A DNA stretch of 53,340 nucleotides from a bacterium (GTDB taxonomy: Bacteria > Fidelibacterota > UBA2242 > JAFGTP01), in NCBI GenBank assembly GCA_035312185.1, contig DATGCI010000255.1:1-53340 (forward strand). Reading direction: 5' to 3'. A program made the translations under genes and the position numbers. Position 1 is the first letter of the stretch, and every line of letters begins with the position of its first letter. Below are positions 21,143-44,822 of this stretch, piece after piece. The notes beneath the pieces were generated by a model that worked only from the letters and a program-made list of their open reading frames with translations, was not told the origin of the DNA and searched no databases.

Positions 21143-21143
21143 T

Positions 21144-29617: not shown

Positions 29618-30016
29618 TTAATCCCTAAACACCAGATGTTTCCGCTCTCTACCTTTCTCCCATTCTGACTCAATTAAGTCCAGGTTGTCTTCAACTTTCT
29701 TAAGTCCGTCCTGCAAATTTTCTTGACCAATAACAATACAGACAAATTTTTTGCGAATACGCTTTATATTGGGACCAAAAACCCGGGAGCAGACCACCTG
29801 AACATTTTCCTGCTTTAATAGTTGAGCAATACCTTTGGCTTTTTTAGGATCGGCATGGACTTCTTCTTCCTCATCAACTGTATTATCAATAGTTGTTATA
29901 TGCTGGAATTGATTATCCTTTAACCGATAGATTTTGTAAAGATTAGCATCGCCAAAATGGCGGTCAATAAATTTTTTACCATCATCAGTTGCTAGAGCAA
30001 TTTTCATATCTTTCAT
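29618..30016 (-). CDS. NifX/NifB-C-terminal-like (COG1433) domain protein
   Basis: MKIALATDDG...RHFGD...; Shine-Dalgarno AGGAGA 7 nt upstream. Confidence 0.8.
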   Translation of the reverse strand: MKDMKIALATDDGKKFIDRHFGDANLYKIYRLKDNQFQHITTIDNTVDEEEEVHADPKKAKGIAQLLKQENVQVVCSRVFGPNIKRIRKKFVCIVIGQENLQDGLKKVEDNLDLIESEWEKGRERKHLVFRD

Positions 30017-30034
30017 ATTGTTTTCTCCTGATTT

Positions 30035-30919
30035 TTAGTGCTTACCTGTTGCTGATTTCTTAATTTTATTCCAATATTTTTCAACTTTTTTACCAACACC
30101 CTTTTCATCAAATTCTACGATAGTTTGTCCGGCTGTCATGGATTTGGTGAAATTTTTGTCATAAGGTAGATCGCCAAAATGTTCAATTCCTTTTTCTTTG
30201 AGGAACTCCATTATCTCCTCAGTTTTGCCTGGATTGAGATCGGCTTTGTTGATAATACAGCCAGCCGGGATTTTGAATTTTTTGACCAGTTCGTAAACCC
30301 TTTTCAGGTCGTGGATCCCAGAACTGGTCGGCTCAGTGACTAGAACAACAAAATCAGCCCCTGAAAGAGATGAAACCACCGGACAACCAATTCCCGGTGA
30401 ACCATCTACTAAAATCCAGTCCAGTCCTTTTTCTTCAGCAATTTTATTGGCTTCTTGTTTTACTTTTGCAACCAGTTTGCCGGAATTCTCTGCCCCAATA
30501 TCAAGACGGGCATGCATCATAGGAGAGCCTGTCTTGACAGTAGATCGGTACAATTGACCAATATTTTGTTCGATCATTGTGATAGCATCAATAGGACAGA
30601 CATGGTAACAATAACTACAGCCTTCACATTCTAGAGGTAGAACTTCGTATTTACCGTCGATAACTTCTATAGCGTCAAAGCGGCAAACCTCGGCGCAACG
30701 ATTGCAATTGATACACTTTTCATGGTCAATCTCTGGTAATTCTCCGCTGTAAAAATCTTCAGAATGAGCAAAATCAGGTTGCATCAATAAATGCATATCA
30801 GCAGCATCAACATCACAGTCAGCAAGAATAGCCTCCTGCCCGGCCAGCATTCCCAGGGAGGCCGCTATACTGGTTTTTCCGGCGCCACCTTTTCCGGAAA
30901 TTATTACTATTTCTTTCAT
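30035..30919 (-). CDS. MinD/ParA-type P-loop ATPase with inserted 2x[4Fe-4S] ferredoxin domain (COG1149-like)
   Basis: SGKGGAGKTS; CINCNRCAEVC and CEGCSYCYHVCP. Confidence 0.85.
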   Translation of the reverse strand: MKEIVIISGKGGAGKTSIAASLGMLAGQEAILADCDVDAADMHLLMQPDFAHSEDFYSGELPEIDHEKCINCNRCAEVCRFDAIEVIDGKYEVLPLECEGCSYCYHVCPIDAITMIEQNIGQLYRSTVKTGSPMMHARLDIGAENSGKLVAKVKQEANKIAEEKGLDWILVDGSPGIGCPVVSSLSGADFVVLVTEPTSSGIHDLKRVYELVKKFKIPAGCIINKADLNPGKTEEIMEFLKEKGIEHFGDLPYDKNFTKSMTAGQTIVEFDEKGVGKKVEKYWNKIKKSATGKH

Positions 30920-31782
30920 TGTTCACCTCTCTTCGTGCGTTCTGTAATAAATTTTTCTACTTTTTTCAGTTCTTGTTCAACTTCAGCGACCTGTTCAAAT
31001 AACAGTTTGCCATTGGAATAAAGTTCTGCAATTTGCCGGCTGTCCGGAATTCTAGCCAGAATTTCGATATTTTCATCCTGGCAATATTGGTAAACATCCT
31101 GATTACCAATCCCATCCCGGTTGACAATTACATAAAAATCTTTTTCTAATTTTTGCATAGTATCAACGGAAAGCTTGAGGTCATGAAGTCCAAATGGTGT
31201 AGGTTCGGTGACCAGGAAAACTAGATCTGCAGCTTTGGTCGCCTCTATAACAGGACAAGAAGTTCCCGGTGGTGAGTCATAAATTTTTAAAATAGGTTTA
31301 TCAAAATTTTCATCAACATATTCAATGGTCTGAGAGATGAGAGGAACGGCCTGCTCTTCACCAATATTGAGCTTACTTTCGACAAAGTCGAGTCCATTCT
31401 CCTTAATATGGCGCAGTTGTCCCATTTCCTTATCAACCATTGGTAGCGCCTCGACAGGACACAATTCTGAACAGGCAAAACAACTATGGCAAAGTTTGGG
31501 AAACACCAAAATTTCATCCATGATCTGAGTAATGGCATTGAAATTACAAATCTGACGGCATTCGCCACACAAAGTGCATTTATCTTCCTGCCATTCAGGT
31601 ACTTTTACATACATTTTTTCTTCATGAAAAGTTTCACCTTCAATAAATATACCAGAGTTAGGTTCTTCCACATCTAGATCAGTTAGAACAACCTGTCTGC
31701 TGGAGGAAAGGTAGGCAGCCAGATTGGTCGCCAGCGTGGTTTTCCCTGTCCCTCCTTTTCCACTCGCAATTGCTATTTTCAT
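30916..31782 (-). CDS. MinD/ParA-type P-loop ATPase with inserted ferredoxin domain (COG1149-like), paralog
   Basis: SGKGGTGKTT; CTLCGECRQIC and CHSCFACSELCP; 4-nt overlap with the downstream paralog. Confidence 0.85.
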   Translation of the reverse strand: MKIAIASGKGGTGKTTLATNLAAYLSSSRQVVLTDLDVEEPNSGIFIEGETFHEEKMYVKVPEWQEDKCTLCGECRQICNFNAITQIMDEILVFPKLCHSCFACSELCPVEALPMVDKEMGQLRHIKENGLDFVESKLNIGEEQAVPLISQTIEYVDENFDKPILKIYDSPPGTSCPVIEATKAADLVFLVTEPTPFGLHDLKLSVDTMQKLEKDFYVIVNRDGIGNQDVYQYCQDENIEILARIPDSRQIAELYSNGKLLFEQVAEVEQELKKVEKFITERTKRGEQ

Positions 31783-31843
31783 TGTTGCTCCATTATTCTT
31801 AAAGTAATTAGATATTCATATTTCTATTCATCAGTTATCAAAT

Positions 31844-32572
31844 TTAAGATAATTCGGCTACCAGATTATCCACCATTTTAGAAGCCTTGCCCTGCAAGAA
31901 TACATCAGTAATTTCTCGGGTAAAATTAGAACGATTAGTATTGATTTCAATAATACTTGCCCCATTGCGTTTGGCAATAAAGGGAATTTGGGAAGCCGGG
32001 ACTACTTCTCCAGTCGAACCGATGATCAGAAATACATCAGCGATTTCAGCCTCCTTGAATGAATTGGTTCGAGCTGGTTCTGGAATAGCTTCACCAAAAA
32101 AGATGAAATCCGGCTTGTAAACCTGGCCGCAATTATTACAACTAGGTGGGAGCTGATCCAGGTCAATCTTTGTTGCTTTCTTGCGATTTTTGCAATTGGT
32201 ACAGACCATCTCCCGAGAATTGCCGTGAAATTCATACACTTTACTACTACCAGCTTCCTGGTGTAAATTATCAATATTCTGAGTAATAACAGCGTCTATA
32301 TAACCCTGATCTTCCATCTCAGCCAATCCAATATGAGCCGGATTTGGTTTTGCTTGACCGAAAAAATCATAAAAAATTTCTTTAATAAGATGCCAGGAAT
32401 CTTCAGGATTTGTTCTGAAATAAGATATATCCAGGATTCTGGGATTATATTTATTCCAGAGGCCATTGGGACCTCGAAAGGGCGGTATCCCGCTCTCTAC
32501 TGAAATCCCTGCGCCAGTAAAAGCTGTCACATGCTCTGCATTCTGGATGATTTCTGCTGCTTTTTCGATCAT
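31844..32572 (-). CDS. cobB: NAD-dependent protein deacylase (Sir2 family)
   Basis: GAGISVESGIPPFRG; QNIDNLH; zinc ribbon CTNC...CNNCG. Confidence 0.88.
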   Translation of the reverse strand: MIEKAAEIIQNAEHVTAFTGAGISVESGIPPFRGPNGLWNKYNPRILDISYFRTNPEDSWHLIKEIFYDFFGQAKPNPAHIGLAEMEDQGYIDAVITQNIDNLHQEAGSSKVYEFHGNSREMVCTNCKNRKKATKIDLDQLPPSCNNCGQVYKPDFIFFGEAIPEPARTNSFKEAEIADVFLIIGSTGEVVPASQIPFIAKRNGASIIEINTNRSNFTREITDVFLQGKASKMVDNLVAELS

Positions 32573-32598
32573 ATATAGAATTCAGTTCCTTTCTTATT

Positions 32599-34476
32599 TT
32601 AGTTGCGTAAACTTAAAGCTACTTCATATCCTGAGCGAATGGCATCCTGGGCTTTGCCTACTCTTTTGGCATCACCTGCAAATTGATAATCAATCTGATC
32701 TTCCAGCTCATCGGAAAGAGGATCATAGGATTTCATACCGGCTGCCAGAATTATATTATCTATATTTTCTATCTTTTTAGTTTTAATTTTTTCATCTTCA
32801 TCAACTTCAAGTTCGGCAGTTGTGTTTTTTATTTTTACCACCCGATGATTAGTCAGAATTTTGACCTGATTGTTTTTTAATTTTTTCATAGTCAGAGCCT
32901 TTTCAATCATTTCCATGCCCTCAGCCACGCTTTCCAGCATTTCTACAATAATTACCTCATTGCCATTATCGGTCAATTTTGAAGCCATTTCTATTCCGAT
33001 CAATCCTCCACCAATTATCAAAATACGCTGATCTTTTGGCAAATTTTTCTCGAGCAGAAAATCAGCCCAATAATATTCGTCCAGGCCTTCGATAGGTGGT
33101 ACTGCAGGAACGGCTCCAGTTGCCAGAATAATCTTAGAAAATCCATTATTCATGAGGTCTTCTCGTGTTGCTTCTTCACAATGCACTTCAATATTCCGGT
33201 TTTCTATTTCTTCTCTGTAGTAGTCAATGATTCTTTTCAGGCTCTCTTTTTTTGGTGGTAAATGAGCAAGATTAAATTGTCCGCCCAGTTTCTCTTTTTC
33301 ATAAAGGACGACATCGTGTCCAATTGTATCAAGAGTAAGTGCGGCTTCCATTCCGGCCAAACCTCCTCCAACAATCGCATATTTTTTCTTGTCTTCAGTT
33401 AGTTCAGGTTCAGGCAGGATTTCACCAACTCTGGGATTGACAACGCAGTGCAATCCTTTGCCACCTTTCACGCCACCCAGGCAACCCTCTGAGCAAGCCA
33501 GACAAGGGCGAAAAGGCCCATCTACTTTCTGAAGATATTTACCAACAAAGTCCGGATCGGCCAGCAGTGCTCTTCCAATTGCCATATAATCGGCCATGCC
33601 TTCATAGCGAATCTTCTGTATGTCTTCACTGGCATTAATTTTTCCAACAGCAATCACCGGCACATCAACAAATTTTTTAATTTCACTGGCCATATTCCAG
33701 GTTTTACCTTTGGGAACGAACATATGCTGAAAATACCAGGGCGGTGTTGAGCAAACAGTTCCGGCTGAAACATGAATTGCTTCGATTCCTTGATTTGCTA
33801 AAATTTTTGAAAATTTGACCATGTCCTTGAGTCTAATACCATCATCAATCATTTCATCACCACTTAAACGGGCAATTACAGGTATATCAACACTATTTTT
33901 GACTGCTTCTAGAACCTGAATCGGAAATTTTATTCTGTTTTCAAAATTGCCTCCATATTGATCATCTCTATCATTGACCTGGGGAGATAGAAATTGAGCC
34001 AGAAGGTAGCCGTGGCCAAATTGAAGTTCAACAAAATCAAAATCAGCTTTTTCTGCTCTTTTGGCAGCTTTAGTGAAAAGATTGACCACTCCTTGCATAC
34101 CTTTGGTATCCAGTTTTTCAGGAGTAGCACCGCCATTTTCACAGGCTTTGTCAGTTGAAGAAACATGGTAATTGCCGGGAATTTTAGGATTTGCCATCCG
34201 ACCTGGGTGATTTAGATGGGCAATTACTTTTGTGCCCTGCTCATGTAAAAGAGCGGTTAATTTTTGCAGTCCAGGAATTTTGTCATCATTATCAATTCCT
34301 AATTGCGTTGGAATTTCCCGTAAACCTTTATCAAGAAAAAAAGGCTCGGGAGTCACAGCACCTAGATGCTCTCCTCTCTCTTCATAAAAATTGAGGTGGC
34401 GTTGATTGATCTTTCCATCTTTACTGTAACCAAGTTTGATTGGCGCCAGGATGAATTGATTCTTTAATTCTAACAT
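32599..34476 (-). CDS. OYE-like FMN / [4Fe-4S] / FAD-NAD(P)H oxidoreductase (2,4-dienoyl-CoA reductase / NADH:flavin oxidoreductase family)
   Basis: HLNHPGRMAN; CLACSEGC-x11-C cluster motif; GGGLAGMEAA and IGGGLIGIEMA folds. Start reassigned to ATG 34476 (MLELKNQ) with GGAGG 5 nt upstream. Confidence 0.85.
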   Translation of the reverse strand: MLELKNQFILAPIKLGYSKDGKINQRHLNFYEERGEHLGAVTPEPFFLDKGLREIPTQLGIDNDDKIPGLQKLTALLHEQGTKVIAHLNHPGRMANPKIPGNYHVSSTDKACENGGATPEKLDTKGMQGVVNLFTKAAKRAEKADFDFVELQFGHGYLLAQFLSPQVNDRDDQYGGNFENRIKFPIQVLEAVKNSVDIPVIARLSGDEMIDDGIRLKDMVKFSKILANQGIEAIHVSAGTVCSTPPWYFQHMFVPKGKTWNMASEIKKFVDVPVIAVGKINASEDIQKIRYEGMADYMAIGRALLADPDFVGKYLQKVDGPFRPCLACSEGCLGGVKGGKGLHCVVNPRVGEILPEPELTEDKKKYAIVGGGLAGMEAALTLDTIGHDVVLYEKEKLGGQFNLAHLPPKKESLKRIIDYYREEIENRNIEVHCEEATREDLMNNGFSKIILATGAVPAVPPIEGLDEYYWADFLLEKNLPKDQRILIIGGGLIGIEMASKLTDNGNEVIIVEMLESVAEGMEMIEKALTMKKLKNNQVKILTNHRVVKIKNTTAELEVDEDEKIKTKKIENIDNIILAAGMKSYDPLSDELEDQIDYQFAGDAKRVGKAQDAIRSGYEVALSLRN

Positions 34477-34587
34477 TTGTTCCTCCCATACTTTCATTAA
34501 TCTACTCAAACTTTCTAATTAGACTGGATGGTGTCCCTCGATTTGAAACCCATCTTACAGCCACCTCTCCTTACGCCATGATATATT

Positions 34588-35235
34588 TTATTTTGTTGCT
34601 CCTAATAATCTTACGTATTTAAACAGGAATAAATTTTCACTGAAACTCTGAAAACCTGTCTGCGACAATATTTCTTTCCAATTTTTATCGATGTAATCAA
34701 AAGCATAGGGACACTCTAGAAGTTTAAAAGGGTATCGGACAATAAAGGGCTTAGAATCCAGGTCAAATTCATTGTAGTCAAGGATGAAAAAAGTACCTCC
34801 AGGTTTCAAGGCTTTATAAGCATTCTCTATAATTCGCTGTCTGACCTGATGAGGGAATCCATGTAAAACAAATGAAATGAAGACTTTGTCAAATTCCTGT
34901 TCATATTCCAGCGGTTTATCAATGCGTTGATTGTGGATCTCCATATTGGGAAATTGCCGGGTTTTTTCTTTGAATTGTTCTATCATCTCTGCTCCAATAT
35001 CAAGAGCGGTGATCTGACCCTCCTCGGAAAGATATTTTTGCATTAATAATGCATTACGGCCAGTTCCGGCTCCAAGGTCTAGAATCTTATCTTCAGGAGA
35101 AATATCCATCATCGCAATAGTTCGGCGAATGAAAAATGGATATATTCCCAGAGTTGCAATATTCAGCAATACATCGTAATGCCTGGCAAGCCAGGGCGTG
35201 AGTTCAACTTCTGAGTCAGGATATAATTTTGCCAT
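34588..35235 (-). CDS. Class I SAM-dependent methyltransferase (UbiE-like)
   Basis: Motif I ILDLGAGTGRNA; 215 aa; Shine-Dalgarno AAGGAG. Confidence 0.8.
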   Translation of the reverse strand: MAKLYPDSEVELTPWLARHYDVLLNIATLGIYPFFIRRTIAMMDISPEDKILDLGAGTGRNALLMQKYLSEEGQITALDIGAEMIEQFKEKTRQFPNMEIHNQRIDKPLEYEQEFDKVFISFVLHGFPHQVRQRIIENAYKALKPGGTFFILDYNEFDLDSKPFIVRYPFKLLECPYAFDYIDKNWKEILSQTGFQSFSENLFLFKYVRLLGATK

Positions 35236-35300
35236 AGGTGCTCCTTAAAATTTCTGGTCTCTTTTAGTTGCTTTCCGATTTTACTCTTCGCAATTTACTC

Positions 35301-35570
35301 TTATTCCCAGTATTTTTTAATTTCCTTATTGAAATCAGGAAAATAATTACCAATCTGTTTTAATTTGAATTTTGACAAAATTGATTCTTTGGATTCTCTT
35401 TCCAGGAGGAATTCAAAGGACTTCTCAATGAGTTCTTTTTTGGAAATCTTGCCTTCAGTCAAATCCTGGTAACATTCGGGCTCCAGAATCACGATGTGAT
35501 CAGAATAACCACTATCTTCGGTTACCATTACTCTGTATTGGTTTTCAGTGATCTTGTTAACTTCTACCAT
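35301..35570 (-). CDS. Hypothetical protein (89 aa)
   Basis: Start moved to ATG 35570 (MVEVNKI) preceded by AAGGAG at 5-nt spacing; no recognised domain. Confidence 0.45.
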   Translation of the reverse strand: MVEVNKITENQYRVMVTEDSGYSDHIVILEPECYQDLTEGKISKKELIEKSFEFLLERESKESILSKFKLKQIGNYFPDFNKEIKKYWE

Positions 35571-35677
35571 TTTTACTCCTTCCTTTATCTGTTTCCAATT
35601 TGCAATTGAAAACAATGTTTAGTAAGGATTTCCTGTAATTTTTCAATTTATAAATATTTCCAACCATTTCATTTTTT

Positions 35678-36898
35678 CTATTTTTGACAGTTCAGCTGAT
35701 AGATGAAATACAATGAACTAAAAATTAAAAAGATTACAATTAGAAAAAATATCCGAAAGCTAAACTGATCGATTAACCATCCTCCGATTAATGGAAAAAT
35801 TACCGGCAGAATATTTCCAGCACCTGTTAAACCTGTATAAAGCGCTCGATTTTTGTTAGTGGTCACTTCCAGCAAAATTCCGCTGATCACAACTCTATGA
35901 AAAGCATACACAATTCCACCTCCTAAAAATATATAGGGAAACAGAACAGCACCTGGAAAAATGAGCAATAAAAGCGGAATAAAAACAGCCAGAAAAGTGG
36001 TTATATAAAGAAGATAATGATAGCGCAATTTTTTAGCATAATAGAACATTATACTGCCGGTGACTACTCCGCCGATAACTTTTAAAAGTAGATAGTTACC
36101 AATATTGTGGGTATCAGCACCAAATGTTTGTTTGGCATATAAAATGAGAAAAGGCAGAAGAATCAGAGTCAGGCCCTGAGTATTAAGGATCATTAAATAA
36201 CTGGGAAGTCTTTTATTGTTTTTGAATTCCTGAAGGGTGACCTGAAAGAAAGCCTTGATATTACTGATTTTTAGATGTTCGGCTGCAACCTCTTTTATCT
36301 TCCAGAAACCTAGCGAGGCCAGGCCTAGCAAAACACCAGCGATAATAAATAAATAGGAATAATTATCCGGATAGGAATGGGTGCGCAGAATCCGCCGTGC
36401 AAAATAGGCTGAGACAAGGATGCCCAAACTGGAGGCGACCTGCTTAATAGAAAAGAAGTGCTTGCGTCGCTCTTCCAATATGGATTTACCCAAAATATCA
36501 GTGTAATTAATATTGGCAAAACCACCACTAACTGAAAAGATAAAAATGAGAAGGAAAATAGCAAGAATTACCAGACCATTAGCAATAAGATCAGAAAAAA
36601 TAAAAAGCAGGGCCATTCCAAACAATGCTACTATTCGAGTATTTATACCAATTAGCAGGTATCTTTTTTTAAAGCGTTTATTGCTCAATGAGGGGGCAAA
36701 AACCAGCTGGGCCAATTTACCACCACCGATCATGATTGCTGTCAATATTCCAATATGAAGGGAAGACCCTCCAGCATCAACCATCATGGCGGGAATTACA
36801 GTATCAATATCCATAAAATTTTTGGCCAATGCTAACAAAGTAGCGTGCCATAAAAAGGAATAATAGTTGTTTTTCGATATTTTCTGGGTCAGTTTCAT
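35678..36898 (-). CDS. MFS-type transporter
   Basis: 406 aa; about 12 hydrophobic segments in a 6+6 arrangement. Confidence 0.7.
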   Translation of the reverse strand: MKLTQKISKNNYYSFLWHATLLALAKNFMDIDTVIPAMMVDAGGSSLHIGILTAIMIGGGKLAQLVFAPSLSNKRFKKRYLLIGINTRIVALFGMALLFIFSDLIANGLVILAIFLLIFIFSVSGGFANINYTDILGKSILEERRKHFFSIKQVASSLGILVSAYFARRILRTHSYPDNYSYLFIIAGVLLGLASLGFWKIKEVAAEHLKISNIKAFFQVTLQEFKNNKRLPSYLMILNTQGLTLILLPFLILYAKQTFGADTHNIGNYLLLKVIGGVVTGSIMFYYAKKLRYHYLLYITTFLAVFIPLLLLIFPGAVLFPYIFLGGGIVYAFHRVVISGILLEVTTNKNRALYTGLTGAGNILPVIFPLIGGWLIDQFSFRIFFLIVIFLIFSSLYFIYQLNCQK

Positions 36899-36950
36899 AG
36901 CAATCGGTCTATCCTATTCATTTAATGATGTTGTCTAAATATCAGCTATA

Positions 36951-37373
36951 TTATCTTTCTCTGACCATTGTTGTGTTACATTGCGGGCATCTAATCTCAA
37001 AACAGGGCTGACCGCGTCGATGGGGCTCCCGATGTCCGCAATCAGGACATACACAATATCCGCCCGGGCCACTTCCGGCTCCAGGTCCCTGACCGCTGCC
37101 TCCACGACCGCCACCCTGACCTGTTCCCATACTGCGACTACCAGCATTTCTCTGAGATCCGGCAGCTCCCGCAGTTTGAGTAGTTCTGGTCGCGCTATCA
37201 TTTTCTACAATGATCGCATCAACAGGACAGGCTTGCGCTGCCGCTTCAATACAGGCGGCTTCAGGGTCTTTGACTTTGGCTTTCATGCCATCCATTTCAA
37301 AACCCTGAGGACAGGTGTTCACGCAAATATTACATCCTATACAGGTTTCCGGGTTAACTTTTACTTTTGCCAT
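36951..37373 (-). CDS. [4Fe-4S]/[3Fe-4S] ferredoxin fused through a Gly/Arg-rich linker to a C-terminal Cys4 zinc-ribbon-like module
   Basis: CIGCNICVNTCP...CP; linker GTGQGGGRGGSGQGPGAGSGPGG; CVCPDCGH...CPQCN. Confidence 0.75.
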   Translation of the reverse strand: MAKVKVNPETCIGCNICVNTCPQGFEMDGMKAKVKDPEAACIEAAAQACPVDAIIVENDSATRTTQTAGAAGSQRNAGSRSMGTGQGGGRGGSGQGPGAGSGPGGYCVCPDCGHREPHRRGQPCFEIRCPQCNTTMVRER

Positions 37374-37384
37374 AATGAGCCTCT

Positions 37385-37948
37385 TTATTTAATGTTCTTC
37401 GATTTTTTGTAGTTTTTCTCTCCGGCTTGAATTTCTACTTCCAGCCAATTAGCAGGAGGAACAAAAGGGCAGGCGTAGTTTTCATTGAAAGCGCACCAGG
37501 GGAGTGTTGCATAATTAAAGTCAAGAATCCATTTTCCGGCTTCAGTTTGATGTTCCCCATAATAAAGATCCATATAACGACCAGCTCCATAACTTTCTTT
37601 ATCATTGGTCTTATCTTTATAAGGAATGAAAAGCCGGTCTTCACCAACTCTGCTTTTGTAAGCTTCCAGTGTGCACTGCTTTCCATTTACCCGAAAATGG
37701 AACTTGCCCCAGATCAACATGTCGCGAATGTTACCTGCTGTATCATTGACTTCGATTGGTTCCTTATCTTTGAGTTCATCGAGTTCCAAAATAATGCGAA
37801 GATCATTATTGAGCGGATAATATTCCAGCCCTTTGAAATTCGCTCGCTCATCCAGAGGTATCGGGGAGGACGAATTGGTTTTGAAAAATTCGTCTTTGCG
37901 CTTTCTATGTATTTCGAGGTCTTTTAATAATCTATCAGTTTTTTGCAT
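37385..37948 (-). CDS. DUF1684 domain-containing protein
   Basis: 187 aa; N-terminal RKRKDEFFKTNSSSPIP...FKGLEYYP pattern typical of DUF1684 (recognised by eye). Confidence 0.6.
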   Translation of the reverse strand: MQKTDRLLKDLEIHRKRKDEFFKTNSSSPIPLDERANFKGLEYYPLNNDLRIILELDELKDKEPIEVNDTAGNIRDMLIWGKFHFRVNGKQCTLEAYKSRVGEDRLFIPYKDKTNDKESYGAGRYMDLYYGEHQTEAGKWILDFNYATLPWCAFNENYACPFVPPANWLEVEIQAGEKNYKKSKNIK

Positions 37949-37963
37949 TTCAACCTCCTGATT

Positions 37964-38719
37964 TTAAGGTTTTAAATGTTCAGCTTCACTACCATCAGGC
38001 AACATATAATCAGGATGATAGCGGCCTGATTCTTCCATTTTATAGCGCTGGCATTTTTGCCAGTTACCTTTGCAATAAAGTTCTGACCATTTTCTATCCA
38101 GGCGGCCCTGCTCTGTATATCTTTTTATGGGGCAGACTGGATACCATTTACATTGTTTTTTGAGAATTTTTAATCGGACGTAGCTAGCTTCCAGATTCCC
38201 TTGCAATTCAGGCTGATAAAGAGGCGTAGCAGGATGGGATAAGGGAAAAATTTTGATATCGTCTGCCACAATCAATTCTGCAATATGATCTTTAAAATTG
38301 TTTTTGGGAAGGTCGTTTATTATTCCATATTCATCAAAGATAAATTTAGTTGCATAATAACCCAGGGGAACCAAAATATCGGGCCTGGTTAGTTCTATTT
38401 CTTGCATTAAATATTTGCTGCAGCTTTCGATTTCATCCTGTTTGGGCTTACGACAGCCTGGTAACATGCACTTTATTAGATTAGTGATATAAAAATCATT
38501 CCAGCTTAATTCTGCTTTCTGAATCAATTCGCGAAAAATTTGTCCGGAGGGGCCGACAAACATGGCATCCTGTTCATCCTCCATTTCCCCTGGAGCCTGG
38601 GGTATCAAAAATAATCTTGCTTCAGGATTGCCTTCTCCAACAAGAGCGTGTTGCCTGGTCTTATGCAATCGACATTTTGTGCAACTTCTTATTTTTTTGT
38701 TTAATTCTTCTAAAGTCAT
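37964..38719 (-). CDS. Family 4 uracil-DNA glycosylase with about 60-aa Cys-rich C-terminal extension
   Basis: CTKCRLHKTRQHALVGEGNP; PQAPGEMEDEQDAMFVGPSG; extension CKWYPVCP...YCKGNWQKC. Confidence 0.85.
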   Translation of the reverse strand: MTLEELNKKIRSCTKCRLHKTRQHALVGEGNPEARLFLIPQAPGEMEDEQDAMFVGPSGQIFRELIQKAELSWNDFYITNLIKCMLPGCRKPKQDEIESCSKYLMQEIELTRPDILVPLGYYATKFIFDEYGIINDLPKNNFKDHIAELIVADDIKIFPLSHPATPLYQPELQGNLEASYVRLKILKKQCKWYPVCPIKRYTEQGRLDRKWSELYCKGNWQKCQRYKMEESGRYHPDYMLPDGSEAEHLKP

Positions 38720-38846
38720 TGGTACTTATTGGTGTTAGTATTCTAAAACTAAGTTTTATTCTTTCGCTCCTGAATTATTGCATTCTTTTCATAGAGAATT
38801 TCTCTGTTAAAATCCCAATGGAAAATGATATTAAATAGATAATAAA

Positions 38847-39095
38847 TCATGAATTCTCTTCTTGCAATAGCTTTCTTTGATTATAGACACTCCGGGGGTT
38901 TTGATGACACCAGCCGCAGCGACGATAATTTGCTTCCGGTTCCGGAGTCTCAACTGGCTTCTTTTTACCATGAGCATCATACATTGGCTTTACCATGGTG
39001 CGAAATTCTACAATTGTTCCCGAATCATCGCAATAGGGACAATGTTCCCATTTTTCCTCTGATATTTTTATCTGTTTCATAGCCTTACCTGTCAT
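38847..39095 (-). CDS. Small Cys-containing (zinc-ribbon-like) hypothetical protein
   Basis: CPYCDDSG and CGWCHQ pairs; tightly follows the DUF89 gene; start uncertain (39095 or 39080). Confidence 0.4.
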   Translation of the reverse strand: MTGKAMKQIKISEEKWEHCPYCDDSGTIVEFRTMVKPMYDAHGKKKPVETPEPEANYRRCGWCHQNPRSVYNQRKLLQEENS

Positions 39096-39103
39096 AAAAT
39101 GAG

Positions 39104-39955
39104 CTATACTCTTTTCTCATTATCTATAAGGATTAAAGAACCTTCTGGGACTCCAATATCCCTGGCAATCACCTCACATTTAGCTTTTAATAAAAAGAAA
39201 ATTGGACGATCTATTGCCGAGAGAGCCTCGTAATTGCCCTGCCCCTTACTGATGATCATGTCGGCATTATCAAAGAGTTCTAAAAATTTATCATTACAGG
39301 TTTCTAGGACTGTTCCCGGAGCAGATGTTCCTGATGAAATCACCCGGGCAACTTTATCTATCCCAACCGTAGATGCTTCTTTTTTGGTAATGTCATTTAT
39401 TACGGGTTTCTCGCGAACAGCAAAAGTGACCGGTGTATCAATTTCTTCAATAAGAAGTTTATCAAAAACTGCTTCACCGGCATTATCCCCGAGATAAAGA
39501 ATATTATTGCTTTCCTTGATATATTTCTTGAAAGTTTCAAAATGATTAATATATAGATCCTGGTGCAAGGATTTTAGAATATCTTCCTCAATATTGAAGG
39601 TTTTAGTGGCACCCAGATCTATTATATTTCCTGCAATAGCCAGTTTAACAGCGTCCAGGAGGCGGTCATCAGATTCATCCAGAATTTCTTTCATATGAGG
39701 ATAGAGTTTAGTGGCTTTTTCAATATGTTCTTTTTTATTAGCAGCAAAGGGATCGGGATTGCCACTGACTTTTTTAATTCTTTCATACATGTGCAAGGCG
39801 ATCTCAGGTGGACTGCTCTCCATGGGAATGCCACGAATCATTTCTCCAACATTATCTAGAATATCTTTTACTCTAGATTCATCTTCTGTTGATAACCGAC
39901 CAACTCTTAGGGCCTGTTCCATAAAACAGGGAATACAATCAAGATAGGTTTTCAT
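39104..39955 (-). CDS. DUF89 (ARMT1-like damage-control phosphatase) family protein
   Basis: N-terminal LDCIPCFMEQALR; 283 aa; Shine-Dalgarno AAGGAGA. Confidence 0.8.
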   Translation of the reverse strand: MKTYLDCIPCFMEQALRVGRLSTEDESRVKDILDNVGEMIRGIPMESSPPEIALHMYERIKKVSGNPDPFAANKKEHIEKATKLYPHMKEILDESDDRLLDAVKLAIAGNIIDLGATKTFNIEEDILKSLHQDLYINHFETFKKYIKESNNILYLGDNAGEAVFDKLLIEEIDTPVTFAVREKPVINDITKKEASTVGIDKVARVISSGTSAPGTVLETCNDKFLELFDNADMIISKGQGNYEALSAIDRPIFFLLKAKCEVIARDIGVPEGSLILIDNEKRV

Positions 39956-40141: not shown

Positions 40142-40522
40142 TTAGTCCGGATATTCTGAAATTTCAATTTTGTTACCGGAATGATCTTCAACAAAAATAA
40201 GGTCTTTTTTATTTTCCCGGGAAATAATATGAACCGGGTAGCCTTTTTCTTCCACACGATCTACAAAAGCCATTCTGTTGTTTTGATAAATGGCAATGTG
40301 ATTATAAACCGGAGTAACCTTCTCCTGACAATAGAATAGCTCTAAAACAAAGTTATCTTTGGCTAATACGACAATAGATGTGTTTTTCTCCAGTTTAAAT
40401 ATCTTTTTGGAAATTTTGGTTGGGATTTTGAATTCCTTGATTTCCTGCATCCCAAGAATGTCTTTATAGAAATTTTGAATATCTACTTTATTATTGATAG
40501 TTATTCCAATGTGTCCAAACAT
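40142..40522 (-). CDS. VOC (glyoxalase/bleomycin-resistance/dioxygenase) family protein
   Basis: 126 aa; HIGITI...FYKDILGM N-terminus typical of the VOC fold. Confidence 0.6.
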   Translation of the reverse strand: MFGHIGITINNKVDIQNFYKDILGMQEIKEFKIPTKISKKIFKLEKNTSIVVLAKDNFVLELFYCQEKVTPVYNHIAIYQNNRMAFVDRVEEKGYPVHIISRENKKDLIFVEDHSGNKIEISEYPD

Positions 40523-40533
40523 AATACTCCTTT

Positions 40534-41547
40534 TTAAAATAGGTTGTGTAATAAAAGTCCGGCCCCACCAATTATTAAGCCAGCGACAAGATTAATTATT
40601 TTAACATTAATGAAATTTTTACGTGATTCTGCCAGCATAGGAAGCATACCATGTCCGTCCTGGACAATTGAGCTGGCCAATAAAATTGAAAAAGGTAATA
40701 CACCTTCGGCAAAAAAGGTGACAAAGATTAGATGAGGCCCCGATTGAGGTATCAAGCCTACTAGTACGGCTACCAGGAGTACAATATATTGATTGGAGTC
40801 GATAACTTGCTTCAAATCAATATGAGCAGTAAGCAAATTGAGAACCAGAAGCGCTCCAAAGGTCCATAAAAAAATCTGGGGAACGTGTTTTTTAACAACG
40901 TGCTCCCAGAGATGCTTCTCAAGAAAATGTTCTGGAACAGTGACAACTATAAAAAGAGAGATAGAACTTAAAACCAAAAATGTGATTCTCTTCCAATCCC
41001 AGATCTGAGGGCCCAACTTTCCGAAAATTATCCCAAAAAATAATAGTAAAGTCAACAGAATAAGAACGCCTCTTTGCAAAGATAGGCTTTTTATTTGATC
41101 TGGAATTTCCTGAGTTGGAAAACAGTCGCACATTTCTTCTTGGTGAAGTTCAAGGCGTCTACGACCGGTGCCAATTGAAAGAAATTTATCGCTCAGAATT
41201 CCGAAAATTATCCCAACAACAAAAAGGATTCCAATAATAATAAAGGCTTTTTCAGGAATCATTGCCAGCATAACAAAAGTTTCGTCTCCACTTGTAGCAA
41301 TCATTGCTGCAACGACTGCACCGAAACTTATTACTCCATGGGAAAATAGAGCAACTGCTGTAAACGCTCCCAAACAACCCGGGATAATTCCTAAAAAGGC
41401 GCCTAGAAAATATTGCTTCCACTTACTTTTCTGTAGTGAATCATGCCAAACACCCTGTGTTTGAATATTGATATATTCGATAATTAGCATCATAACAAAG
41501 ACAAAACTGGTTATCATGAGGGCATGATTGAAGGATTTTAATAACAT
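40534..41547 (-). CDS. Polytopic membrane protein, possibly ArsP_2/putative metal(loid) exporter family
   Basis: 337 aa; about 10 hydrophobic segments in two halves around a charged loop; family assignment tentative. Confidence 0.4.
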   Translation of the reverse strand: MLLKSFNHALMITSFVFVMMLIIEYINIQTQGVWHDSLQKSKWKQYFLGAFLGIIPGCLGAFTAVALFSHGVISFGAVVAAMIATSGDETFVMLAMIPEKAFIIIGILFVVGIIFGILSDKFLSIGTGRRRLELHQEEMCDCFPTQEIPDQIKSLSLQRGVLILLTLLLFFGIIFGKLGPQIWDWKRITFLVLSSISLFIVVTVPEHFLEKHLWEHVVKKHVPQIFLWTFGALLVLNLLTAHIDLKQVIDSNQYIVLLVAVLVGLIPQSGPHLIFVTFFAEGVLPFSILLASSIVQDGHGMLPMLAESRKNFINVKIINLVAGLIIGGAGLLLHNLF

Positions 41548-41562
41548 TTTGACTCCTTTAGA

Positions 41563-41784
41563 TTAGTTATCCCGTTTTTTTCCGGGGTGAGGATTTCTTG
41601 ATGAATTGTTCTGGTAATCGGTTGCATAAAAGCCCTGACCTTTAAATACTAGGGCCGGGCTTTTTATCACTCTTTTTGTGGTACCGTGGCAACTGGGACA
41701 CTCTGGATAGGAGTCATCCCTTATGTTTTGCTTTTTAGAAAATGTATAACCACATTCTAGACATCTGTATTCATAAAATGGCAT
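41563..41784 (-). CDS. FmdB-family zinc-ribbon protein
   Basis: MPFYEYRCLECGYTFS...CPSCHG (CxxC_CxxC_SSSS type). Confidence 0.8.
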   Translation of the reverse strand: MPFYEYRCLECGYTFSKKQNIRDDSYPECPSCHGTTKRVIKSPALVFKGQGFYATDYQNNSSRNPHPGKKRDN

Positions 41785-41796
41785 CTTGTCTCCTAT

Positions 41797-42435
41797 TCAT
41801 ATTTCGATTTTGGCGCCAGCACCACCCTGTATATACTGATCTGTATATCGGTTTTTTATCTCTGCAATGTGCTGAGTACAGTGAGTCGGACAAATCATCT
41901 GAATCCCGTTTAATACTTCGTATTGATTAAATCCATGAAAGCCACCAATCAGAGCATACACATCTCCATAAGAACTAGCAACTTCAAGTATATTCTCAAT
42001 ACCCGGGTGAGAACATCCAACAATGACGACCAGGCCTTTTTCAGTCTGCATTATTAGTGATTGCTCGATGTTTTTTAATTCACCAGTAGAGTAAATATTT
42101 TTGTGAAGTTTACTGGCTTTCTCTATATATTGGAGTTCTTTTACATTTTTTATACCCCTTAATGATGGGGGAGAATATACAACAACATCATTATTTTTAT
42201 TTAGAAACGCTGATAAGCCGCCTACGTGATCATAGTGATTATGAGAGAGGAAAATTTCGTCAACACATTCGGGATTTATTTCTAGTTTTGCCATGTTTTC
42301 CATTAATATTTTGCCATTTGAACCGGTGTCAAATAGAATGTTGCATCCATTGGTTTCGACCAGAGCGGCGAAGCCCCAGTCGGATTTGAGCTCCTTGCTC
42401 AAAGTAGTGTTGTCATAAATTATTGTAATTTTCAT
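41797..42435 (-). CDS. MBL-fold metallo-hydrolase (COG1237-like), cytoplasmic paralog
   Basis: SHNHYDHVGG; aligns by eye along its length with 20369..21142; start reassigned to ATG 42435 (MKITIIYDN). Confidence 0.8.
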   Translation of the reverse strand: MKITIIYDNTTLSKELKSDWGFAALVETNGCNILFDTGSNGKILMENMAKLEINPECVDEIFLSHNHYDHVGGLSAFLNKNNDVVVYSPPSLRGIKNVKELQYIEKASKLHKNIYSTGELKNIEQSLIMQTEKGLVVIVGCSHPGIENILEVASSYGDVYALIGGFHGFNQYEVLNGIQMICPTHCTQHIAEIKNRYTDQYIQGGAGAKIEI

Positions 42436-42439
42436 ATTT

Positions 42440-43360
42440 TTACCCTTTGAATAATTTCTGTGGTAAAATATATTTTGACCCCGAATATTGTTTGATAAAA
42501 AATTTACCCTGGTCAATTAAATTTTTCAGCTCCGCTTTTTCGTCAAATTGCTCAGCAATCCATTGAGCCTGTTCTCTACGTAAAGGATGGCGAGCTGTGA
42601 TTTCACTAATAGCTTCTTGAGTGTCTTTATATTTACTAATATTGAAATTGCCGGTTTCATGATAGGCGATTGCCCGGGAACCGCTAATAAGTTTCTGAGC
42701 ATATAGATAGATACCTGGTTCTGGTGGATCCACATCTTCAGCAGGAGGACGAGTTGGTGACATTATAAAAGATTTCTCTGGGGCAATTTTTTCGATAATG
42801 GCTTTTATTCTTTTCAACTCTTCTTTATTATCGTTGTATCCTTTTACAAGCATAGTTTCTGTCCACACCTGCCCTTTAAAATTTTTGCTGAAATCAATTG
42901 TTCCCTGGACTATAGTGTTGAAATCCAACTCTTTGTGTGGCCTGTTAATTCTCTTGAATACAGTCTCCTGCCCTGCATCAATAGAAGGCATAACAAGGTT
43001 CGCGTTTTGAAGATCTTTTTGGACATCTTCTCTGTATAATAGAGAGCCATTTGTTATTACTGCTACAGGAAGGTCAAAATTTTCTTTACTCTGGTTGATT
43101 AACCATCCTAAATCACTATTTAATGTAGGCTCGCCATCACCAACAAAAGTAATATAATCGGCATTAGAATTAAGGACCCTCTCTTGTAGTTCTGAGAAGA
43201 TTTTTTGAGGGTCAAAAAAACTTTTTCGATCAACTGTGAATTTGTCAGTGCGACCTAGTTGACAATATACACAGGAATAACTACAGGTTTTCGCAGGGAT
43301 CGGGCTTACTCCGATTGATTTACCAAGTCTTCGGGAAGGCACGGGACCATAGGTGTACAT
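42440..43360 (-). CDS. Radical SAM protein (COG0731-like)
   Basis: YGPVPSRRLG...CSYSCVYCQ (CxxxCxxC); start reassigned to ATG 43360 with AAGGAG upstream. Confidence 0.8.
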   Translation of the reverse strand: MYTYGPVPSRRLGKSIGVSPIPAKTCSYSCVYCQLGRTDKFTVDRKSFFDPQKIFSELQERVLNSNADYITFVGDGEPTLNSDLGWLINQSKENFDLPVAVITNGSLLYREDVQKDLQNANLVMPSIDAGQETVFKRINRPHKELDFNTIVQGTIDFSKNFKGQVWTETMLVKGYNDNKEELKRIKAIIEKIAPEKSFIMSPTRPPAEDVDPPEPGIYLYAQKLISGSRAIAYHETGNFNISKYKDTQEAISEITARHPLRREQAQWIAEQFDEKAELKNLIDQGKFFIKQYSGSKYILPQKLFKG

Positions 43361-43422
43361 AAAATCTCCTTGGAAAAGTGAAGAGCCGGGAAAGCCCAAC
43401 GGGGAACTTCCCCGGATCTCTT

Positions 43423-43773
43423 TTACTCTTCTTCCAGTTCCTGAATACGATTATTGATATTTTCCAGATTGGCTTTTAACTGCTCAGCCTGATCTTTCAG
43501 AGCTTTTACTTCTTGCTCTTTACTTTGATAGGCTGGTGCAGGATTGGTTACAGGGGCTGTCTGGTTTACTGGAGCGGACCTCCAGCCAAAACCATAGCCT
43601 CTACCAAAACCATAACCGCGGCCTGGACCACGCCCAAAACCACGACCATAACCTGCTCCACCACGGGGAACACCTTTTGTGTAACCCGGAGTGGCGTATC
43701 CTGCGCAATAACCTAAACCTCGACCTGTCATAGGGCCGAAGCCATCAGGTCCTGTACGATCTCCTCTAGGCAT
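43423..43773 (-). CDS. DUF5320 domain-containing protein (Gly/Arg-rich, C-terminal coiled coil)
   Basis: MPRGDRTGPDGFGPMTGRGLGYCAG N-terminus; GRGFGRGPGRGYGFGRGYGFG repeats; C-terminal heptad-like KEQEVKALKDQAEQLKANLENINNRIQELEE. Confidence 0.75.
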   Translation of the reverse strand: MPRGDRTGPDGFGPMTGRGLGYCAGYATPGYTKGVPRGGAGYGRGFGRGPGRGYGFGRGYGFGWRSAPVNQTAPVTNPAPAYQSKEQEVKALKDQAEQLKANLENINNRIQELEEE

Positions 43774-43895
43774 AATGAACCTCCTTTTTTCATTAGCTTT
43801 TGCTTATATTCACAAATTTACCAGACTCCCGATTTTCGGGATTTTCTGTAATTTTGATATTTTGATAATTAAAATTCATAAAATTGATTTCAGTG

Positions 43896-44264
43896 CTAAG
43901 CATGATGACGATGACGTCCATCACCCTTGCCTTCTCCTCGAACACAAAGACTTTCACCGGATTCGAGTTTACCATTGATGTAGTCTTCAATAACACAATC
44001 AACATCACCTTGAACACCGATTATCCAATCAATATTAAATTCTTTGAAAAGACCTTGAGCTTTTCTTCCCATTCCACCGGCAATTATTAATTGGCAATCT
44101 TTGCTATTCAGAAATTTTGGCAGAGCACCAGGTGCATGCCCTGGATTACCAACTATTTCCTTATTCTTGACCTGTTCATCTTTTATCTCAACTATAGTGT
44201 ACTTCGGACAGCGACCAAAATGTTGAGCTACCTGACCATTATTAGTTGCAATTGCTATTTTCAT
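43896..44264 (-). CDS. NifX/NifB-C-terminal-like (COG1433) domain protein
   Basis: MKIAIATNNGQVAQHFGR...; 4-nt overlap with the DUF134 gene. Confidence 0.8.
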   Translation of the reverse strand: MKIAIATNNGQVAQHFGRCPKYTIVEIKDEQVKNKEIVGNPGHAPGALPKFLNSKDCQLIIAGGMGRKAQGLFKEFNIDWIIGVQGDVDCVIEDYINGKLESGESLCVRGEGKGDGRHRHHA

Positions 44265-44761
44265 AAATTACCTCGTTTTTGATTAGTTTTATTTGATTCT
44301 GGACCACGGGGGCCTCTTCTCTTTTTACCTCTACGTTTACCCCGAGGGTTAAACCAACTATTGAGGTCAACTACCTCCGGGGAATCACATTCCGGACAAT
44401 TAGTCGGTACAACATCTTCAATATTAGATGAGGAAACGTCCCCACAGCTCAAACATCTAATCAAATGATGCTGAAAAGAGAATGAACCGCCCTCTATTAA
44501 AAGATCTTTGACACCAATAATAGACTCGGCGATCTTTTTGCGGGCTCCATCTACAAGGCGTGTGAATGTAGGTCGAGAAATATCCATTACCTTGGATGCT
44601 TTTTTGTGAGAATAGCCTTTGTAATCTGCCAGACGAATTGCTTCATATTCGTCAATCGAGAGGATGATCTTTTCCAGCATACGACCGGGAACTCCAATCG
44701 GCTTCATCCCTTTGATTTTGGGGGGCGCTTCTACTTTACGATTTTTTCTTGGTCTCGGCAT
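44261..44761 (-). CDS. DUF134 (UPF0251) putative DNA-binding protein with C-terminal Cys4 extension
   Basis: MPRPRKNRKVEAPP...KPIG; HTH-like KKASKVMDISRPTFTRLV; CLSCGD...CPECDS; GGAGG Shine-Dalgarno. Confidence 0.8.
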   Translation of the reverse strand: MPRPRKNRKVEAPPKIKGMKPIGVPGRMLEKIILSIDEYEAIRLADYKGYSHKKASKVMDISRPTFTRLVDGARKKIAESIIGVKDLLIEGGSFSFQHHLIRCLSCGDVSSSNIEDVVPTNCPECDSPEVVDLNSWFNPRGKRRGKKRRGPRGPESNKTNQKRGNL

Positions 44762-44774: not shown

Positions 44775-44788
44775 TGAACTATTGTTCA
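44775..44788. promoter_or_regulatory. TGAAC-N4-GTTCA dyad (TGAACTATTGTTCA), promoter-proximal copy
   Basis: Perfect 5+5 inverted repeat between the predicted -10 and the DUF134 Shine-Dalgarno site. Confidence 0.5.
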
Positions 44789-44793: not shown

Positions 44794-44822
44794 AATATAA
44801 TGAACTATGGTTCATAAGTCAA
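44794..44822 (-). promoter_or_regulatory. Candidate sigma-70 promoter of the DUF134-led operon
   Basis: On the minus strand: -35 TTGACT (44822..44817), 17-bp spacer, -10 TATATT (44799..44794). Confidence 0.5.
44801..44814. promoter_or_regulatory. TGAAC-N4-GTTCA dyad (TGAACTATGGTTCA), within the promoter spacer
   Basis: Perfect 5+5 inverted repeat 26 bp from the first copy; part of a 12-bp direct repeat ATAATGAACTAT. Confidence 0.5.

Follow-up and report, generated by a model that had tools for sequence, protein, structure and literature searches.

A DUF134-led eight-gene operon with a probable place in ORP/IssA-type metal-sulfur handling in a Fidelibacterota genome

Here we describe eight minus-strand genes, headed by a DUF134 putative regulator, at positions 40,142 to 44,761 of a 53,340-nt stretch of contig DATGCI010000255.1 from a bacterium of the Fidelibacterota; this whole stretch is called the window, and all coordinates are positions within it. 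We consider it fairly probable that the eight genes form the promoter-proximal operon of a DUF134-controlled regulon for metal-sulfur handling, of the type represented by the ORP cluster of Desulfovibrio and the IssA protein of Pyrococcus furiosus. The control region and genes, with scores against Pfam and NCBIfam models in bits, are as follows.

44794..44822, minus strand: promoter of sigma-70 type, TTGACT-17 nt-TATATT, matching 10 of 12 consensus positions, heading the DUF134-led operon
44801..44814: operator dyad O1, TGAACTATGGTTCA, an exact dyad within the -35/-10 spacer
44775..44788: operator dyad O2, TGAACTATTGTTCA, between the -10 element and the Shine-Dalgarno (SD) site, 26 bp from O1
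44261..44761, minus strand: DUF134 regulator, PF02001 (COG1342), 89.9 bits against a cut-off of 27; helix-turn-helix (HTH), Cys4 ribbon and basic Gly/Arg tail
43896..44264, minus strand: NifX-like (Nitro_FeMo-Co) protein, PF02579, 72.6 bits; NF041136 (MrpORP) positions 265-365, 102.9 bits
43774..43895, minus strand: intergenic gap of 122 nt, deletion scar of a small DUF5320-like gene
43423..43773, minus strand: DUF5320, PF17253, 93.5 bits; Gly/Arg/aromatic N-terminal 70 residues and acidic coiled-coil tail
43386..43415, minus strand: stem-loop in the spacer between the DUF5320 and radical SAM genes, minimum free energy -25.7 kcal/mol, z -2.0
42440..43360, minus strand: radical SAM enzyme, COG0731-like, 306 aa, PF04055, 55.8 bits; one CxxxCxxC cluster
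41797..42435, minus strand: COG1237-type metallo-beta-lactamase-fold (MBL) protein, Lactamase_B, 48.7 bits; HNHYDH motif
41563..41784, minus strand: FmdB-family CxxC-CxxC zinc ribbon (Zn_ribbon_8), TIGR02605, 60.1 bits against a cut-off of 31.3
40534..41547, minus strand: ArsP_2-family permease, TC 2.A.119.2, PF11449, 144.6 bits against 32.5; NF037962, 168.7 bits against 100
40142..40522, minus strand: VOC-fold (glyoxalase I-like) metalloenzyme, PF00903, 33.2 bits

A preliminary description of this locus had named eight open reading frames (ORFs) of these families, and the ORF list, Pfam and NCBIfam confirm them all. It had also placed the genes 23 nt or less apart save for one gap of 122 bp. 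The 122-nt gap is present, but the spacer between the DUF5320 and radical SAM genes is really 62 nt rather than 23 nt, because the most likely start of the radical SAM gene is ATG 43360 (MYTYGPVPSRRLG), which is common to all homologues and has AAGGAG upstream. An alternative start at TTG 43399 was considered and is unlikely, since the homologues all begin at the ATG. Measured along the eight genes, the spacers are -4, 122, 62, 4, 12, 15 and 11 nt; the first 4 nt of the NifX-like gene are the last 4 of DUF134, and the MBL gene begins at ATG 42435, 4 nt past the radical SAM stop. Purine-rich SD sites precede all eight starts, that of the MBL gene (AAAGGG) being weak, just as had been described.

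The 122-nt gap is explained as a deletion scar by the sister genome of the same genus (locus L016), which has approximately 270 bp extra at this position, coding for a DUF5320-like ORF that begins MPRGNQTGP. The stem-loop between the DUF5320 and radical SAM genes is a possible partial terminator or RNA-stability element and could keep the level of DUF5320 above that of the downstream enzymes; a hairpin of other sequence occupies the same position in L016 (about 1195-1260). The 186 nt that separate the VOC gene from DUF89, the next gene on the same strand, hold no terminator-like site, and the same-strand run continues to position 26016 (18.7 kb), so that the VOC gene is only a putative operon end.

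A dedicated, operator-controlled promoter had been proposed for these genes, and its elements are indeed in place, with TTGACT-17-TATATT accompanied by two dyads. The promoter and the dyad pair upstream of DUF134 are kept in ten loci of the order with the 26-bp spacing conserved, and another four loci have one or more exact dyads ahead of DUF134, which brings the total to 14 loci in 13 related genomes; the CTTGAC(A)/TATATT architecture and the position of O1 are likewise found upstream of DUF134 in relatives. The 3.0-Mb assembly contains three exact TGAAC-N4-GTTCA dyads, all of them in the window and at promoters, the third heading a gene group on the opposite strand.

19777..19790: third dyad, TGAACTTATGTTCA, 72 nt upstream of a CGGC-domain gene and 25 kb away from the other two
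19863..24428, plus strand: putative second DUF134-regulated operon, encoding a CGGC-domain protein, a second COG1237-like MBL, an NAD-kinase-like protein and two aminotransferases (Pfam)

All three dyads share the flanks TTATGAAC...GTTCATAA, and the flanks of the third agree with those of the O1 and O2 sites (TTATGAAC...GTTCATTAT). Three relatives from one sister genus, G003, G006 and G007, carry the genes as two separate operons, located on different contigs or at different sites, and each of the two has the operator. One reads operator-DUF134-NifX-MBL-small ORF-MinDFd1-MinDFd2-NifX3, MinDFd denoting MinD-ferredoxin genes, and the other reads operator-operator-DUF5320-(radical SAM or SIR2)-ArsP2-CGGC-MFS. 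The dyad on both of the split operons argues for a factor that acts in trans, and the running of DUF134-NifX-MBL into MinD-ferredoxin genes puts the ORP ATPases directly in the regulon. Distant metagenomic loci have related palindromes ahead of DUF134, namely TGAGC-N4-GCTCA and TGCTC-N4-GAGCA; a search of 711 kb of such sequence gave no exact TGAAC-N4-GTTCA dyad, which marks the exact half-site as lineage-specific.

The DUF134 gene is present in a single copy in the genome, within the window, and its product shows weak matches to Sigma70_r4_2 and HTH_23 over residues 34-76 (Pfam). All 14 homologues aligned share its C-terminal Cys4 motif, recognised from the start, without variation and with a Gly/Arg tail behind it; the tail has an isoelectric point (pI) of 12.0. 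That DUF134 is the protein that binds the dyads we regard as likely.

Several observations bear on the surroundings of these sites. The CGGC gene, the second MBL gene (MBL2) and the gene for a 388-aa aminotransferase in the operon behind the third dyad have radical SAM or ORP genes as neighbours among relatives and in other phyla. The rex promoter has a canonical Rex box (19470-19487), and just past the third dyad there is a degenerate, N6-spaced one (19805-19824). Rex-like boxes (TTGTGATTGTGTTCACAA) also occur approximately 130-150 nt upstream of DUF134 in L024, L027 and L029, which hints at an added NADH or redox control.

The NifX-like protein matches the C-terminal, Di-Nase half of MrpORP (positions 265-365) and carries just a 16-residue basic tail. 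Its gene is one of three Nitro_FeMo-Co genes in the genome, all of which are in the same-strand run, and the DUF5320 gene in the window is the only copy in the genome. Residues 1-70 of DUF5320 comprise 24 Gly, 10 Arg+Lys, 11 aromatic residues, 7 Pro and 1 Cys, with a pI of 10.6. IssA, in which iron and sulfur are stored as thioferrate, combines a NifX-like domain with a 70-residue tail of 15 Gly, 7 cationic and 14 aromatic residues, 11 Pro and 1 Cys, pI 10.7 (PMC5524996). Given this similar composition, and since a natural fusion of NifX and DUF5320 is encoded in the relative L039, the two window proteins look like a split IssA-type carrier. No match to the nitrogenase-type Oxidored_nitro domain (PF00148) was found in the genome, which is 75.7% complete; the NifX proteins would thus serve something other than nitrogenase.

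The radical SAM protein contains three Cys in all (C26-x3-C30-x2-C33) and no auxiliary-cluster ligands. Its CxxxCxxC cluster and a GDGEP sequence (GGE-type SAM motif) are invariant in the homologues, which have further strongly conserved motifs of their own. It had been stated that no member of the operon gives a readable chemistry, and in our searches neither this protein nor the MBL protein falls into a characterised subfamily, with NCBIfam equivalogs far below cut-offs and generic PDB and fold matches. The best NCBIfam score of the radical SAM protein is 48 bits against a cut-off of 180, so no equivalog is assigned; TYW1 (TIGR03972), to which the JGI label 'wyosine synthetase' of homologues refers, scores 39.1 bits against 318, with no second cluster. 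By sequence, no PDB match has an E-value better than 1e-4. An AlphaFold2 model (pLDDT 90.7) has PFL-AE, viperins, TYW1 and NifB as about equal top Foldseek matches (TM 0.5-0.6), and a literature search on the N-terminal motif returned nothing. The C-terminal 70 residues have a winged-helix topology in a separate model and no significant PDB match (best E 0.23); an RRE-like, peptide-binding role for this predicted domain is an idea only. The family numbers 908 clusters at 50% identity (E<=1e-30), and several of the closest homologues, including P0003 at 66% identity, are named Candidatus Marinimicrobia by their sources; the host of the window, an uncultured anaerobe, probably belongs there too.

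For the MBL protein the best PDB match is 7DCK (E 1.5e-41), followed by TM1679 (3H3E, 1.1e-19) and 2P4Z (2.5e-17), all with functions unnamed; literature searches for 7DCK, MJ0301 and TM1679 returned nothing. Of 20 related loci, 11 have an MBL gene within the 700 nt that follow the radical SAM gene. Two natural fusions extend the associations of the radical SAM protein: P0136 is a NifX-radical SAM fusion whose N-domain matches the NifX2 protein of the window at E 4e-11, and P0215 joins the radical SAM protein to a methyltransferase. The gene neighbourhoods thus establish that the radical SAM and MBL proteins are associated, and any chemistry for the two enzymes would be a prediction from sequence. 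A third protein, P0191, was considered as a second NifX-radical SAM fusion on the strength of its N-terminal 140 residues and was dropped because BLAST gave no confirmation. In one family of the order, radical SAM proteins of 409-435 aa (P0032, P0083 and P0101) have a conserved C-terminal extension of approximately 100 residues, without a Pfam match, that fills the gap before the MBL gene.

Zn_ribbon_8 genes also stand beside the radical SAM gene in L036 and in six related loci. The permease, previously estimated to have some 10 transmembrane segments, does show about ten hydrophobic segments, and its invariant motifs are PGC, SGDE, CFP, PEHF, SGPH and QDGHGMLP. ArsP_2 adjoins the radical SAM gene in L017, L018, L054, L055 and L059, following it directly in one genus (L017 and L018). 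The H/E/H/E metal ligands of the VOC protein are invariant, and its gene travels with DUF89, NifX2 and ArsP_2 in relatives, a VOC-NifX2-ArsP_2 block, mostly with DUF89 first, being found in L026, L028, L029 and L020. The order radical SAM-MBL-FmdB-ArsP2-VOC is kept only in L016.

In L016 VOC and DUF89 are separated by the insertion of a same-strand gene for a 782-aa TonB-dependent receptor (4550-6898), and in L039 a Fur-FeoA-FeoB-TonB receptor group lies directly upstream of DUF134; in these TonB and Fur contexts, links to iron appear in the relatives.

Beyond the VOC gene, the same-strand run carries the following further genes.

26016..39955, minus strand: remainder of the run, comprising DUF89, a small Cys protein, a uracil-DNA glycosylase (UDG), DUF1684, a ferredoxin-Zn ribbon protein, MFS, a methyltransferase, an OYE/FadH-like flavoenzyme and SIR2 (Pfam, NCBIfam)
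Continuation of the same remainder, to 26016, minus strand: two MinD+2x[4Fe-4S] ATPases (Orp3/4-like), NifX2, a methyltransferase, NifX3, a CoA-disulfide reductase (CoADR)-like protein and Mrp

Mrp (26016-26831) matches positions 1-249 of MrpORP, the P-loop half, at 312 bits against a cut-off of 450. The MinD-type ATPases (30916-31782 and 30035-30919) combine CbiA/ParA with Fer4 domains, and the ferredoxin of the run has a Gly-rich linker plus a zinc ribbon. The window contains one sigma-54-activator-like gene (48391-49878), which is not adjacent to the operon. The two halves of MrpORP, P-loop at 26016-26831 and Di-Nase at 43896-44264, are separate genes at opposite ends of the 18.7-kb run. 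The family-4 UDG (37964-38719) is fused to a Cys-rich C-terminal extension of approximately 60 residues, which is encoded as a stand-alone protein beside MBL, MinD-ferredoxin, NifX3 or DUF89 in L019, L023, L029, L045, L047 and L051 (tblastn, 62-70 aa).

A reshuffled version of this gene set is carried by 20 related loci. Conservation of the gene order had been suggested as a check; the eight-gene order does recur in same-genus L016, but in no other of these 20 loci. The idea of a self-contained eight-gene pathway is not supported by the relatives, which reshuffle the genes with Mrp, MinD-ferredoxin ATPases, NifX paralogues, DUF89, CGGC, methyltransferases and OYE, every one of which is encoded in the window. 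Further afield, an Omnitrophota locus (L001) reads NifX-NifX-Fdx-MinDFd-MinDFd-radical SAM, a Thermodesulfobacteriota locus (L036) has Zn ribbons, a CDF+NifX fusion, radical SAM, NifX and CoADR, and an archaeal locus (L038) reads MBL-radical SAM-MBL with thioredoxin and its reductase adjoining. In Zixibacteria the radical SAM gene occurs with DUF89, aminotransferase and PanK, and four other loci pair it with Cupin_7 in the company of methyltransferase, OYE/FadH-like, NAD kinase, DUF59, CGGC or aminotransferase genes. Homologues of nearly all these partners are also present in the window.

For a wider census we considered 37 metagenomic loci of at least 8 kb and recorded, at tblastn sensitivity, the partners within 10 kb of the radical SAM gene. 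Mrp was found in 10 loci, MBL types in 9, NifX types in about 10, DUF134 and MinD-ferredoxin in 6 each, and CGGC and DUF89 in 4 each; ArsP_2 occurred in 3 of the 37, adjacent to the radical SAM gene each time. The joint absence of radical SAM, DUF134, DUF5320 and MBL genes from five relatives was rejected as independent evidence, because these genes share contigs in incomplete metagenome-assembled genomes. Literature searches on DUF134, DUF5320 and the COG numbers returned nothing specific.

Two loci show further arrangements. The CDF transporter of L036 (5255-6520), fused to a NifX-like domain beside the radical SAM gene, is a second transporter-NifX link after ArsP_2-NifX2. In L048 (from G007) a SIR2-family gene (6879-7604) fills the radical SAM slot between DUF5320 and ArsP_2.

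Based on these comparisons, we propose the following working model for a DUF134-controlled regulon that would handle inorganic iron-sulfur or, in a wider sense, metal-sulfide material. We infer that DUF134 is a binder and repressor, that the cargo of the carriers is Fe-S, that the radical SAM and MBL proteins act on or for this cargo and that the permease moves metal. A DUF134 dimer would bind the two dyads ahead of its own gene, one filling the -35/-10 spacer and the other between the -10 element and the SD site, positions from which it is predicted to repress its own operon. Through the third dyad it would also repress the second operon (CGGC, MBL2 and following genes), and a signal tied to metal-sulfur or redox status may relieve repression. 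The NifX-like protein and DUF5320 would bind anionic Fe-S species as a split carrier or store resembling IssA or Orp8 and would cooperate with the Mrp and Orp3/4-like ATPases from further along the run. The radical SAM and COG1237 MBL proteins would be a conserved accessory pair with the NifX-bound cargo as its substrate or as the recipient of its product, and the FmdB ribbon, ArsP_2 permease and VOC protein most likely form a module that moves a metal species across the membrane.

A number of points weigh against this reading. The three dyads in the assembly compare with 3.5 expected from base composition, which is chance level, and the case for their function is therefore argued solely from their locations and flanks; moreover, the half-site resembles a Rex box. 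The four cupin loci have neither NifX nor MinD genes, so that the radical SAM protein may serve a function only loosely tied to ORP, and about one third of the census loci show none of the partners at tblastn sensitivity. The likeness of DUF5320 to the IssA tail is one of composition and architecture, to be distinguished from homology. A role in cell division has been suggested for the ORP complex in the literature, and the curated NCBI model NF037962 names the permease an arsenic efflux protein. Finally, the eight genes are known here from sequence alone, and the runs that hold the sequence of the locus are exclusively DNA metagenomes, the best of them labelled soil and salt lake.

The preliminary description, whose interpretation is on the whole partly supported, took the eight genes to suggest synthesis or detoxification of a small molecule or metal(loid) species. 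As a self-contained pathway this could be, for instance, an organoarsenical route with radical SAM, MBL and VOC enzymes and an ArsP_2 exporter. We consider this highly unlikely. It is true that the permease passes the cut-offs of both NF037962 and ArsP_2, that the VOC protein has the fold of the C-As lyase ArsI, that two methyltransferases of the run show weak ArsM/TehB-type matches and that radical SAM and ArsP_2 genes are adjacent in five loci. However, ArsI binds As(III) through a vicinal cysteine pair, and the VOC protein lacks such a pair, has a single Cys that is not conserved and shows no ArsI-type NCBIfam match. The radical SAM protein matches neither the ArsS nor the ArsL model of NCBIfam, the two methyltransferases reach 47-51 bits where the ArsM cut-offs are 263-575, and no ArsR, ArsC or Acr3 was seen among the neighbour genes scanned. 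The permease matches PF11449 and not PF03773 (ArsP); within the ArsP family PF11449 is a remote branch (TC 2.A.119.2) that is treated as uncharacterised (PMC7176098), and we found no experimental basis for the arsenic name of NF037962. What pointed to metalloid chemistry is thus a family name, that of the permease; the VOC protein, the radical SAM protein and the neighbours supply no arsenic marker. In addition, the eight-gene order is kept only in the genus, and the regulator and genes 2-3 are of the published ORP/MrpORP and IssA-like type. A general redox or damage-control regulon of an anaerobe, in which the radical SAM protein would be a repair enzyme and the Fe-S carriers would serve cluster repair, is unlikely, although less so. 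The VOC+MBL pair, OYE, CoA-disulfide reductase, DUF89, UDG, NAD kinase and SIR2 would make up such a set, and these families do occur within one 25 kb, under or beside operators; thioredoxin and its reductase stand beside MBL-radical SAM-MBL in L038, and Rex boxes are found near the cluster in the window and in relatives. The scores that would identify the key enzymes, namely weak GloA/GloB-type matches of the VOC and MBL proteins, 216 bits of DUF89 to a damage-control phosphatase model and 226 bits of the CoADR-like protein, are nonetheless all under curated cut-offs. The COG1237 MBL belongs to a branch other than GloB, with uncharacterised best PDB relatives, and across phyla DUF134 is most steadily accompanied by NifX, MinD-ferredoxin, Mrp and DUF5320 rather than by the repair enzymes.

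The adjacency of radical SAM and NifX genes in several phyla, the fusions P0136 and P0215, NifB among the top fold matches and a genome with no nitrogenase gene found could also be taken to indicate a nitrogenase-independent, NifB-like system, in which radical SAM protein, methyltransferase and NifX carriers build or remodel a complex metal-sulfur cofactor. With only the three radical-SAM Cys and no auxiliary ligands, a NifB fold match no better than those of PFL-AE, viperin and TYW1, and no evident client enzyme for a complex cofactor in the window, we give this little credence. A bolder combination, of NifB-like radical and methyl chemistry by the COG0731-like radical SAM protein, a class-I methyltransferase and NifX carriers on a carrier-bound cluster, or on the Gly/Arg carriers themselves, with DUF134 as a new class of transcription factor that reads the inorganic loading state through its Cys4 ribbon and IssA-like tail, strikes us as quite unlikely. 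As for the regulator, the protein on the dyads might be some factor other than DUF134, such as the NADH-sensing repressor Rex, whose gene lies at 18818-19441. Each of the three dyads matches TTGTGAA-N6-TTCACAA with 3 mismatches, the third site falls in the Rex-CGGC intergenic region, and Rex-like boxes lie upstream of DUF134 in relatives. The canonical box is N4-spaced, however, and occurs at the rex promoter only (TTGTGAATATAATCACAA at 19470, the one Rex box with no more than one mismatch); the dyad spacer is 2 bp longer, with A/T for G/C at a key position, the TGAGC-N4-GCTCA palindromes before distant DUF134 genes are not Rex-like, and wherever DUF134 is encoded the dyad persists on both of the split operons. 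Binding by Rex or another factor is accordingly improbable, and we retain DUF134 as the candidate regulator of an ORP/IssA-type regulon.

ORP-type clusters are among the most widely distributed anaerobe-specific gene sets with an unsolved cellular job. The pairing of three operator sites with one DUF134 protein would define a regulon and offers a route to the inducing signal, and the split IssA-like carrier could show whether Fe-S storage of the thioferrate type exists in bacteria. The pair of radical SAM and COG1237 MBL proteins, tied to NifX by neighbourhood and fusion, opens a radical SAM family of approximately 900 clusters. On a practical level, users should be aware that the 'arsenic efflux' label of PF11449/NF037962 should not be taken to show arsenic biology. 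The ORP cluster and IssA have already been published; as far as the literature searched shows, no description exists of the DUF134 operator, of the likeness of DUF5320 to the IssA tail or of the extension by radical SAM and MBL genes. To these the present window adds the genome-wide operator count, the third site, the split regulon, the deletion scar, the fusion proteins and the arsenic negatives.

Among known systems, the operator of Rex (TTGTGAA-N4-TTCACAA) resembles the dyads in its half-site (T-T-A/G-T-G-A-A), its palindromic form and its overlap with a promoter; the dyads differ in a spacer 2 bp longer (N6 instead of N4) and a symmetric G-to-A change. ArsP of Campylobacter jejuni (PF03773, TC 2.A.119.1) belongs to the same TCDB family as the permease (2.A.119, TOG superfamily) and is likewise a protein of many transmembrane segments with Cys motifs. 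The permease described here, in contrast, is of the PF11449/2.A.119.2 branch and has no ars context, and its conserved Cys, His, Asp and Glu residues would suit a transition metal equally. With NifB and NifX the locus shares a radical SAM protein tied to NifX-fold carriers, as in the P0136 fusion, and NifH-like P-loop ATPases nearby; unlike that system, the fusion order is reversed (NifX-radical SAM), auxiliary-cluster ligands and nitrogenase genes are absent, and NifB is one among several equally distant fold neighbours.

The closest parallels are with IssA and ORP. In IssA, too, an IPR003731/NifX-like domain is joined to a 70-residue cationic segment rich in Gly and aromatic residues, with one Cys and a pI of about 10.6. 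The chemistry of its tail is proposed to wrap anionic thioferrate (PMC5524996). In the window, by contrast, each part has a gene of its own, DUF5320 ends in an additional acidic coiled coil, and the ligand is putative. The ORP complex of Desulfovibrio comprises Orp3, Orp4, Orp5, Orp8 and Orp9, the last being MrpORP (PMC6345978, PMC3897727). With the ORP clusters of D. vulgaris Hildenborough and D. alaskensis G20 the window shares the NifX-like carrier, the MinD pair and an Mrp/NBP35 carrier that best matches MrpORP, as well as the anaerobe-specific distribution and the gene clustering of a system whose function is unsolved. It differs in having a sigma-70-type promoter with DUF134 dyads instead of sigma-54, OrpR and IHF, and in splitting MrpORP into two genes 17 kb apart where Desulfovibrio has one two-domain protein. 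While the eight genes themselves hold a single ORP-type gene, the NifX-like one, the cluster as a whole is extended by DUF5320, radical SAM, COG1237 MBL, FmdB, ArsP_2, VOC, DUF89, CGGC and others. The locus is thus probably the ORP cluster of strict anaerobes in an enlarged form, of Marinimicrobia type, with storage features resembling those of IssA.

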